18,148 nucleotides of DNA from a virus (lineage: Duplodnaviria > Heunggongvirae > Uroviricota > Caudoviricetes). Shown piece after piece: positions 16,593-18,148 of this stretch (the stretch's first letter is position 1; each line of letters begins with the position of its first letter). The notes below the pieces were generated by a model. That model saw nothing but the letters and a program-made list of their open reading frames with translations, had not been told where the DNA came from and did not search any database. Position numbers and translations under genes: made by a program. The DNA lies in the IMG/VR virus record IMGVR_UViG_2609459852_000016; one strand, given 5' to 3'.

Positions 16593-17090
16593 CTACATCT
16601 GATATTTTTTATCTCTTAAAGATTCATAAATCCGTTGACAAGTCACTCCTGCGATGTAGCGTTTGTCAGCAATTTCAGCATAAAGCTGAGCTTCTGCTGC
16701 AATATCTCCGAGCATGTTGGTGAGCATTCCTTCGGCGGCTTTGGTTGTTTTGCCTCTGACGGCAGCGGCAAGATTTGCGGTATGCTGCGCTGCGTCAAGG
16801 CGTATGGCATATTTTGTTGCTTCGGCACGCAGCTGGTTAACACTATCAGACAGATCAGCAGCCCTGGCAGAAATTTCAGCGGCTTTCTGTTGTGCATCTT
16901 TAACAGCCTCATCACGGGATATACTTCGCCCCTGTTCAATTATTCGAGCAGCAAATTGGACATTTACCTCTTGAGATAATTCGGCAGCATCACGCTCCGC
17001 CCATTTTTTTTGCCATCCTCTGTCGCTCCAGACATTACCTACGACAAATCCTACCAACACGAGCAAAATCACCGTGAATATCTGATTCAC
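16593..17090 (-). CDS. Rz: Rz-like i-spanin
   Basis: N-terminal transmembrane segment [15 protein letters not shown] then Ala/Gln-rich coiled-coil-like periplasmic domain. GTG start overlaps the endolysin stop (GTGA), with GGGGGAT SD. Confidence 0.8.
16643..16897 (-). CDS. Rz1: Rz1-like o-spanin lipoprotein, embedded in the +1 frame of Rz
   Basis: ATG at 16897 with GAGG SD. Signal peptide and lipobox LTSC, then proline-rich mature region ([21 protein letters not shown]). Confidence 0.55.
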
Positions 17091-17620
17091 TGTTCTATCC
17101 CCCAGCAGGTTAATGCACTCTCCTGGTCACGACGAATAACCTGACCGTAACAATTATTTGAACGAATGCGGCAATCACGTCCACCGTCCTTTATCCACCA
17201 GCGAATCGCCTCGCATGCGCCTTTACGATCACCGGCATTAAGCCGCTTATAAAACGTCGACGGAAAACACTTACCAGGGCCAATGTTATAGGGACAGAAT
17301 GACGCGATACCGGCTTTCTGTGGCTCGGTCAGTGGAACTTTTATATTGCGCTCCACCCATGCCAGCGCCTTATCACGCTCAATGGCGTTGATCTGGTCGC
17401 ATTTTTCCTTCGACAGTTTCATATTGGGAAAAACGGTTTTTCCATCCACCACTGTGGCACCCCGACAGATGGTCCATATGCCAGAACCATCGCGGTATGC
17501 CATTGTGTGGTTACCTTCTTTTTCGTCCAGAAACTGGTCAAGTATCTGAGGAGCAGATGCGCCAGCACCAATCAGCGCCAGAACGGCAGCCGACAGGCCG
17601 TATCTGATTTTTGTGTTCAT
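17087..17620 (-). CDS. R: SAR endolysin (T4-lysozyme / GH24 family, phage 21 R-like)
   Basis: N-terminal Gly/Ala-rich signal-anchor-release segment [21 protein letters not shown], then the catalytic E...D...T context ([22 protein letters not shown]). Start overlaps the ydfR-like stop (ATGA). Confidence 0.9.
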
Positions 17621-17928
17621 AGATATTTATGATGAGGACGCTCGTGCTTATTGGCAGGATTTTCAATCTTAAAGGAGTACTGATGCTGCAGATAAGACTC
17701 AACTTTTTCTGACAATTTTTCTGCTACTTCCAGGAAGACTTGCCGGACGCTCATTCTGGCTGCTGCCTCATAAAACTCCAGCGCAGCTCCTTCAACACGG
17801 TCCATGGCGACATCCAGGCCAAAAATTTCACTGTCAAAGCGTTCTTTGTCCTGTAAGGCTACAGTTACCGTAACTTTATTCTCAAAATTACGGACTCCTT
17901 TCACAACCAGTTCATAGTCTTGAGTCAT
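17617..17928 (-). CDS. ydfR: YdfR-like protein (DUF1327) between holin and endolysin
   Basis: 103 aa; matches E. coli Qin prophage YdfR as I recall it; same position as in Qin. Confidence 0.75.
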   Translation of the reverse strand: MTQDYELVVKGVRNFENKVTVTVALQDKERFDSEIFGLDVAMDRVEGAALEFYEAAARMSVRQVFLEVAEKLSEKVESYLQHQYSFKIENPANKHERPHHKYL

Positions 17929-17932
17929 TGGA

Positions 17933-18148
17933 TTACTCTCCTCTCGCAGCCTTACGCCTGTCTTCTTTAATCTTGAAATAAAGATTTGTCAGATACGTCA
18001 GCATGCCAAATACCAGACTACCCAATACACCTATTGCCGCCCACTGTGAGGGCGTGACTTTATCGAGCAACTGTAAAAACCAGTAGCCAGCACTGCCTGC
18101 AGAGGTGCTGTAGGCGATGCCCGTTGTTAACTTATCCATGGATTTCAT
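17933..18148 (-). CDS. S: Phage-21-type pinholin (S21-like) with dual-start motif
   Basis: [71 protein letters not shown]: 71 aa, two transmembrane domains, Met1 and Met4 starts as in S21 antiholin/holin. The start codon is the last three bases of the window. Confidence 0.9.

Follow-up and report, generated by a model that had tools for sequence, protein, structure and literature searches.

A Qin-type lysis cassette, with ydfR between the holin and endolysin genes, in a lambdoid prophage of Escherichia coli

Results

A lysis cassette at the edge of the window

We analyzed the lysis genes of a tailed-phage sequence from IMG/VR (IMGVR_UViG_2609459852_000016). The window, by which we mean the whole stretch of DNA, is 18,148 nucleotides (nt) long, and the lysis cassette occupies positions 16593-18148. 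It has five genes: a holin, ydfR, a signal-arrest-release (SAR) endolysin, and two spanin genes, Rz and Rz1, one of which lies within the other. The cassette lies at the window's 3' edge, with all of its features on the minus strand, and each of the five reading frames is intact. A preliminary description, made from the sequence alone, had presented this region as a phage 21-type cassette with an inserted ydfR-like gene. Its coordinates hold for all five genes, and the strand had gone unmentioned there.

Comparisons to other genomes indicate that this lysis cassette is ordinary and has already been annotated in lambdoid prophages of E. coli; it is of the type found in the cryptic prophage Qin of E. 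coli K-12. Across 1749 bases, the sequence is 100% identical to a prophage of E. coli O166:H15 JNE21-003 (NZ_AP041809.1), whose genes are annotated as essD, ydfR, rrrQ, and rzpQ. In that genome, the whole window maps to a lambdoid prophage, which has genes for the terminase, portal, capsid, and tail. The cassette aligns to Qin without gaps, with 97% DNA identity and with the same gene junctions. The full block is also carried by the sequenced phages mEp460_ev081, HannyBb, PhiR42_1, and Tritos (93-99% identity), and some of the carriers, including HannyBb and Tritos, are viable phages. Phage 2H10 shares the genes for the holin, the endolysin, and the spanins, but it has a 183-amino-acid variant of the DUF1327 protein, which is the family of YdfR.

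The arrangement is not unusual, as it is the annotated one in Qin. We also rejected the idea that ydfR is a novel insertion, because K-12 has the gene, and so do 1789 of the 5426 complete genomes of E. coli, or about a third of them, when at least 80% of the gene must be covered.

Pfam assigns families to the holin, YdfR, the endolysin, and Rz, with E-values (8.9e-24 to 2.9e-51) that exclude chance matches. The embedded Rz1 reading frame has no match in Pfam. PHROGs labels both of the spanin reading frames as lysis proteins, along with the holin and the endolysin, and it labels the DUF1327 protein as "unknown function." NCBIfam does not include a model for YdfR. We found no terminators or promoters within the cassette on the coding strand. 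Overall, the cassette is not a new variant.

The holin and the endolysin

As the comparator for phage 21, we used prophage DLP12 of E. coli K-12, whose lysozyme (RrrD) matched the endolysin, as did the solved structure of the phage 21 endolysin R21 (PDB 3hde).

The holin gene (17933-18148, minus strand) begins exactly at the edge of the window, at position 18148. It encodes a putative class II holin of the pinholin type, with 71 amino acids, from the S21/EssD/EssQ family. It matches PF04971 ("Bacteriophage P21 holin S") with E = 2.3e-34 and 117.6 bits (the cut-off is 26 bits), across positions 1-63 of the 64 in the model; it matches "holin" families in PHROGs; and it is 94% identical to EssD from DLP12 and 91.5% identical to EssQ from K-12. 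The N-terminus, MKSMDK, appears to be a dual-start motif: translation from Met1 (at 18148) would give the antiholin form and translation from Met4 (at 18139) would give the holin form. The sequence fits the pattern Met1-Lys2-x-Met4, in which the longer form would have an extra positive charge at its N-terminus. The dual start and the pinhole mechanism of S21 are described in a review (PMC9636201). The protein is predicted to have two membrane helices and to end with a basic tail in the cytoplasm. The first helix is only weakly hydrophobic and is rich in Gly, Ala, Ser, and Thr. Among related loci, the ratio of nonsynonymous to synonymous substitution rates (dN/dS) for the holin is 0.06-0.23.

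Over its initial ~150 nt (17995-18148, minus strand), the holin gene differs from K-12 Qin far more than do the other parts of the cassette. The synonymous rate (dS) relative to Qin is 0.65 over the holin gene, as compared to 0 for ydfR and 0.17 for the endolysin gene. This suggests that there was a recombination breakpoint within the holin gene.

The endolysin gene (17087-17620, minus strand) encodes a putative SAR-type lysozyme of 177 amino acids, of the RrrQ/933W-R type. It is 99.4% identical to RrrQ from K-12, and it matches PF00959 (Phage_lysozyme) with E = 8.9e-24. It aligns to the structure of R21 (3hde) with E = 1.7e-16 across residues 9-174. Since the alignment begins at residue 9, it includes the N-terminal anchor. 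The endolysin is just 33% identical to RrrD, with the catalytic triad E35/D44/T50 at the same positions (Glu, 8 residues, Asp, 5 residues, Thr).

The putative SAR anchor (17546-17602, minus strand) corresponds to residues ~7-25 and is preceded by K4 and R6. This segment has the composition that would be expected for signal arrest and release of the R21 kind: residues 7-26 are 55% Gly, Ala, Ser, or Thr, and the peak Kyte-Doolittle hydropathy (over 15 residues) is 1.9, versus 3.0 for the membrane helix of Rz. Residues 1-30 do not include any cysteines and the first cysteine is C52, as in the R21 type and not the type of P1 Lyz, which is a disulfide-regulated SAR endolysin. There is a possible A-S-A site that is followed by proline, which might allow export without cleavage of the signal; a proline after the cleavage site blocks signal peptidase I. 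Among related loci, the dN/dS of the endolysin is 0.01-0.16.

Both of these proteins turned out much as the preliminary description had proposed. The match to PF04971, the identity to EssD, and the reading of the N-terminus agree with a 71-residue S21-like pinholin with a dual start at MKSMDK, while the alignment to 3hde, the catalytic triad, and the weakly hydrophobic Gly/Ala/Ser-rich segment agree with an N-terminal SAR domain in the endolysin. These similarities support the pairing of a pinholin and a SAR endolysin. This pairing has been predicted for 99% of Shiga toxin (Stx) phages (PMC8136144), and surveys present it as the rule in Stx phages (PMC8136144 and PMC10462455).

The spanins

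Rz (16593-17090, minus strand) is predicted to encode an inner membrane spanin (i-spanin) of the RzpQ type, with 165 amino acids. It matches DUF2514 (PF10721; E = 3.6e-38, from residue 4 onwards) and PHROG 312, "Rz-like spanin" (E = 4e-58). Residues 4-20 are predicted to form a membrane helix (with a hydropathy of 3.0 for residues 4-18), which would be followed by a long periplasmic part.

The GTG start of Rz, which overlaps the stop codon of the endolysin gene, seems sound. Past an in-frame stop codon, no ATG, GTG, or TTG comes before the GTG at 17090, and the next candidate starts lie inside the membrane helix, so the GTG is the only start that retains the helix. We therefore rejected an in-frame start further upstream and an ATG start. 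The same start is used in the annotation of K-12 (b1553) and in annotations from the Prokaryotic Genome Annotation Pipeline (PGAP). The GTGA context of the start is identical in four related loci. In another locus, from the metagenome-assembled genome (MAG) contig L013, Rz is just 56% identical; this locus retains the GTG, but it also has an in-frame ATG three codons downstream. A possible Shine-Dalgarno sequence for the GTG, GGGGGA (17098-17103, minus strand), is 7 nt upstream and is identical in four related loci.

Rz1 (16643-16897, minus strand) is a candidate outer membrane spanin (o-spanin) of the RzoQ type, with a precursor of 84 amino acids. Its coordinates were transferred from rzoQ of K-12. 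It lies entirely within Rz, in the +1 frame: it begins 193 nt into Rz and it stops 50 nt before the stop of Rz. Rz1 thus spans 0.39-0.90 of the length of Rz, while embedded spanins usually start at 0.4-0.5 and end at 0.9-1.0 (PMC6139136). The precursor has a lipobox (LTSC, with Cys23 and with Val at the +2 position) and the mature part is rich in proline. It is similar to PHROG 11621, "Rz-like spanin" (E = 2e-8), and the reading frame is kept open in the locus whose Rz is just 56% identical. Reading the sequence, there is a Shine-Dalgarno sequence, GAGG (16907-16910, minus strand), 9 nt upstream of the ATG of Rz1. The preliminary description had proposed both the GTG start of Rz and a fully embedded Rz1 with its own Shine-Dalgarno sequence, and both proposals are supported.

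Rz does not match PF03245, which is the family of the Rz proteins of lambda and phage 21, and a BLASTP comparison of Rz to RzpD of DLP12 found no detectable similarity (E = 8.6). We therefore rejected a spanin of the phage 21 type. Rather, this protein would work like Rz but belongs to a different spanin family.

The ydfR gene and its family

The gene ydfR (17617-17928, minus strand) lies between the holin and endolysin genes and encodes a DUF1327 protein of 103 amino acids, as had been proposed. YdfR matches DUF1327 (PF07041) with E = 2.9e-51 across the entire model (positions 1-93 of 93), and it is 97% identical to YdfR from K-12. The two genes have three nucleotide differences, all of which are nonsynonymous (S33G, G37D, and M59R), and this count is too small to interpret.

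YdfR is a soluble and acidic protein (pI of 5.6) with a conserved N-terminal domain of ~72-76 residues and a variable tail that is predicted to be disordered. DUF1327 proteins of 71-73 amino acids correspond to the N-terminal domain alone. Other members have unrelated C-terminal extensions, which leads to proteins of 103, 104, 114, 129, 183, 206, or 329 amino acids. These C-terminal parts look like interchangeable modules, for instance in an Stx2a phage (L004 1661-2650; 329 amino acids), in phage 2H10 (L005 1721-2272; 183 amino acids), and in a MAG contig (L013 270-890; 206 amino acids), and they match separate PHROG families of unknown function. An AlphaFold2 model of YdfR, from an alignment of 18 sequences, predicts a helix at residues 50-72 as well as three strands. 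The mean predicted local distance difference test (pLDDT) is 59, and the values are below 50 in the tail. When we compared this model to PDB and BFVD with Foldseek, there were no matches at E ≤ 0.001, so the fold did not suggest a function.

DUF1327 is a small family. A profile search of 1.84 billion representative proteins (clustered at 50% identity) identified just 76 proteins, all of them DUF1327-like. Among species-representative genomes, DUF1327 is found only in Escherichia and Shigella, barring two MAG contigs. Contigs in MAGs of Veillonella parvula (L011) and of a member of the Bacillota (L013) carry this prophage cassette of E. coli, with YdfR proteins that are 96% and 83% identical, respectively. 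These copies in MAGs of Firmicutes most likely reflect contamination during binning.

Where it occurs in Escherichia-type loci, the DUF1327 gene has a fixed location: it starts exactly 4 nt past the stop codon of the holin in all 14 of the loci that we examined. Among 438 phage records with a holin of this type, a DUF1327 gene is present in just 100 (about a quarter). In the Stx2a phage P13374, an endolysin that is 88% identical begins exactly in the slot of ydfR, 4 nt past the holin's stop codon. We also found distant DUF1327 genes, one after an Rz gene and one near a minor tail gene, on contigs whose lengths (1.3-1.7 kb) make their context only slightly informative.

Overall, ydfR behaves as an optional insertion between the holin and endolysin genes, which takes over the ribosome-binding site at the 3' end of the holin gene. 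Because related Stx2a phages place the endolysin directly in its slot, YdfR is probably dispensable for lysis. For the N-terminal domain of YdfR, dN/dS is 0.15-0.6, which supports ydfR as a real gene, under weaker constraint than the holin or the endolysin.

Gene junctions and ribosome-binding sites

The preliminary description had ydfR flanked by ATGA-type overlaps on both sides and hence translationally coupled to the lysis genes. This is correct for one side only. The ydfR and endolysin genes do have an ATGA overlap, and coupling by overlap could apply to that pair only, but the holin and ydfR genes are separated by a gap of 4 nt (TAA-TCCA-ATG), with no overlap. The endolysin and Rz genes have a GTGA overlap.

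A Shine-Dalgarno-like sequence, GAGGAGAG (17936-17943, minus strand), lies within the last codons of the holin gene. It would serve whichever gene begins 4 nt past the holin's stop codon, which in this case is ydfR. Related loci have purine-rich equivalents (GGGGAGAG) at the same place in the 3' end of the holin gene, or a weaker sequence (AGAAGAGAG) in phage 2H10. In P13374, which lacks DUF1327, the endolysin occupies the slot and instead uses the purine-rich end of the holin gene. The endolysin's own leader, AAATATC(C/T)ATGA, is found in the window (17621-17640, minus strand) and in three other loci (L004, L005, and L016), and it has no recognizable Shine-Dalgarno sequence. Translational coupling from ydfR to the endolysin via the ATGA overlap is plausible for this cassette, but it is not a trait of the family.

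Surroundings in the prophage

In the genome of O166:H15 JNE21-003, an IS21-like insertion sequence (IS) element, ISEc62 (istA/istB; L001 350-2858), splits the gene for the antiterminator Q. The element is upstream of the holin and outside of the window. Expression of the late genes, including those for lysis, may have been lost in this copy of the prophage.

On the other side of the cassette, several small accessory genes (cspI, ymcF, ynfN, and gnsB) lie between the spanin genes and the terminase. The cspA thermoregulator from Rfam (RF01766) matches positions 15971-16387 (minus strand) with 110 bits, versus a gathering score of 78; the match covers cspI and its 5' untranslated region. For another gene in the window (7829-9856, minus strand), the annotation of the identical genome gives a ClpP-like prohead protease that is fused to the major capsid protein. 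This fusion is part of a morphogenesis module that seems to be complete.

Discussion

How the cassette might work

It is very probable that these genes are the late-operon lysis cassette of a Qin-type lambdoid prophage of E. coli, which, by analogy to characterized homologs, would act by means of a pinholin, a SAR endolysin, and spanins, with ydfR as an optional accessory gene that is probably not needed for lysis. The 71-residue holin would be made in two forms, as a holin from Met4 and as an antiholin from Met1, both of which would build up in the inner membrane. The endolysin would be exported by Sec and would be kept tethered and inactive by its weakly hydrophobic SAR segment. At a set time, the holin would form small pinholes and the membrane potential would collapse; the SAR segment would then exit the membrane, and the lysozyme would refold and cut the cell wall. 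Finally, a complex of Rz (in the inner membrane) and Rz1 (a lipoprotein in the outer membrane) would remove the outer membrane. In this scheme, ydfR would take the ribosome-binding site at the 3' end of the holin gene, which would otherwise serve the endolysin, and the 103-residue version of ydfR would hand the ribosomes on to the endolysin via the ATGA overlap. YdfR itself would be a small cytoplasmic protein, and the best lead is that it might bind the catalytic half of the host's RNase E, and possibly RNA as well.

Several points weigh against this account. What we propose for lysis, for the release of the endolysin, and for the size of the pinholes is all carried over from phage 21, and the endolysin of that phage is only 33% identical. 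The endolysin leader that lacks a Shine-Dalgarno sequence is also found in relatives whose DUF1327 gene ends 36-320 nt upstream; since the leader is kept even without the overlap, coupling via ATGA is not a conserved requirement. The structural model for YdfR is weak (mean pLDDT of 59) and did not lead to an informative match. The interaction with RNase E was seen upon overexpression, and overexpressing ydfR led to little change in the transcriptome (PMC13232886). Finally, the genome that is identical to the window has a Q antiterminator, upstream, that is split by an IS element, so this copy of the cassette may never be expressed.

Another explanation is that the cassette in this prophage is a silent relic and is no longer lytic, as is assumed for the cryptic prophage Qin in K-12. 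Besides the interruption of Q by the IS21-like element in the 100% identical genome, this would fit with the genes of K-12 Qin being nearly untranscribed under standard conditions (PMC13232886). On the other hand, none of the five reading frames is disrupted, the window has a full set of terminase, portal, capsid, and tail genes, the same cassette is found in sequenced phages, and the holin and the endolysin are under strong purifying selection (dN/dS of 0.01-0.23). We consider it possible, but on the unlikely side, that the cassette is a relic.

The role of YdfR

As an alternative to YdfR being an accessory protein that is not needed for lysis, YdfR might be a phage effector that does play a part late in infection, either by modulating RNase E or by acting with the pinholin to time lysis; by capturing the ribosome-binding site, ydfR might also lower or retime the synthesis of the endolysin. 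This proposal stands because the family is conserved (the dN/dS values above), it is locked to one slot, and an interaction with RNase E has been published. We give it a minority share of the probability.

For the effect on RNA, YdfR would bind RNase E's catalytic domain, along with RNA, so as to protect the long late transcript or redirect its decay, and the cassette would be just a convenient slot for expression. A 2026 study, which gave the only lead on function that we found in the literature, recovered residues 1-72 of YdfR in a two-hybrid screen with RNase G, and the same residues also interacted with RNase E; full-length YdfR interacted with residues 1-597 of RNase E; and Strep-tagged YdfR co-purified residues 1-598 of RNase E, with DNase-resistant nucleic acid in the eluate (PMC13232886). 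The two-hybrid fragment coincides with the sole conserved domain of the DUF1327 family. However, the effect of overexpression on the transcriptome was limited, and the authors left open the possibility that a contaminant was the RNA binder (PMC13232886). Also, the comparisons to PDB and BFVD did not recognize an RNA-binding fold. A role as a late modulator of RNA decay is rather unlikely, in our judgement.

Alternatively, YdfR might be a cytoplasmic regulator of lysis timing, somewhat like RIII of phage T4: by binding either the holin's tail or the endolysin prior to its export, YdfR might delay or sharpen the triggering of lysis. The gene's fixed slot right behind the holin, where it shares the ribosome-binding site in the 3' end of the holin gene, would make sense if so, as would the location of one distant homolog next to an Rz gene. 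YdfR is acidic and the tail of the holin is basic, and cytoplasmic antiholins are known from T4 (PMC9636201). Also, ydfR was reportedly a hit in a screen for envelope integrity, as cited in PMC13232886. However, we did not find ydfR in the main text of the paper on that screen (PMC3879167), so the hit was not confirmed there. Furthermore, most phages with the same type of holin lack the gene, the other distant homolog is near tail genes instead of lysis genes, and overexpressing ydfR did not affect growth (PMC13232886). We consider a role in lysis timing to be improbable. The rest of the probability, beyond RNA decay and lysis timing, goes to an accessory function of YdfR that is unrelated to either.

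If YdfR does regulate the timing of lysis or the decay of the host's RNA, it would be a new component for a textbook lysis pathway. It would be relevant to Stx phages as well, because some of them have longer versions of DUF1327 beside the genes that release the toxin.

Comparison with known systems

The closest known system is Qin from K-12, whose five genes match those of the window in identity, order, and length: essQ (b1556), ydfR (b1555), rrrQ (b1554), rzpQ (b1553), and rzoQ (b4689). The junctions are the same as well (TAA-TCCA-ATG, ATGA, and GTGA), and cspI follows the cassette in both. Besides YdfR (97% identity) and the endolysin (99.4%), Rz and Rz1 are 89% and 95% identical to their counterparts in Qin. 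The two cassettes differ in that the holin gene has diverged from essQ over its initial ~150 nt, and in that the cassette we describe lies within a prophage with a complete morphogenesis module.

The resemblance to phage 21, as represented by DLP12, is partial. The two share the holin family (94% identity to EssD) with its dual start, a SAR anchor joined to a lysozyme with E35/D44/T50, an embedded two-component spanin, and a GTGA at the junction of the endolysin and Rz. But the endolysins are 33% identical, the spanins are from different families (DUF2514 versus PF03245), and in DLP12 the endolysin is directly behind the holin, with no DUF1327 gene. A strict phage 21 cassette would have orthologous S, R, and Rz/Rz1, with R right after S, and in this cassette the holin alone is orthologous. 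So the preliminary label of "phage 21-type" fits the holin and the logic of combining a pinholin with a SAR endolysin, but it does not fit the endolysin or the spanin. Given the identity of the holin to EssD (94%), the modest identity of the endolysin to RrrD (33%), and the lack of detectable similarity of Rz to RzpD, the cassette is a mosaic of a 21-family pinholin, a SAR lysozyme of the RrrQ/Stx-phage type, and a DUF2514 spanin pair.

Stx phages (P13374, Stx2_95, and 933W-like phages) also combine an S21-family holin with an RrrQ-type endolysin, which is 87-88% identical to the endolysin in the window. Stx2_95 has a DUF1327 gene in the same slot, but it encodes a protein of 329 amino acids with a long additional C-terminal part. 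P13374 does not have a DUF1327 gene, and an antirepressor gene lies between its endolysin and Rz genes. In both P13374 and Stx2_95, Rz belongs to PF03245, unlike the DUF2514 protein in the window.

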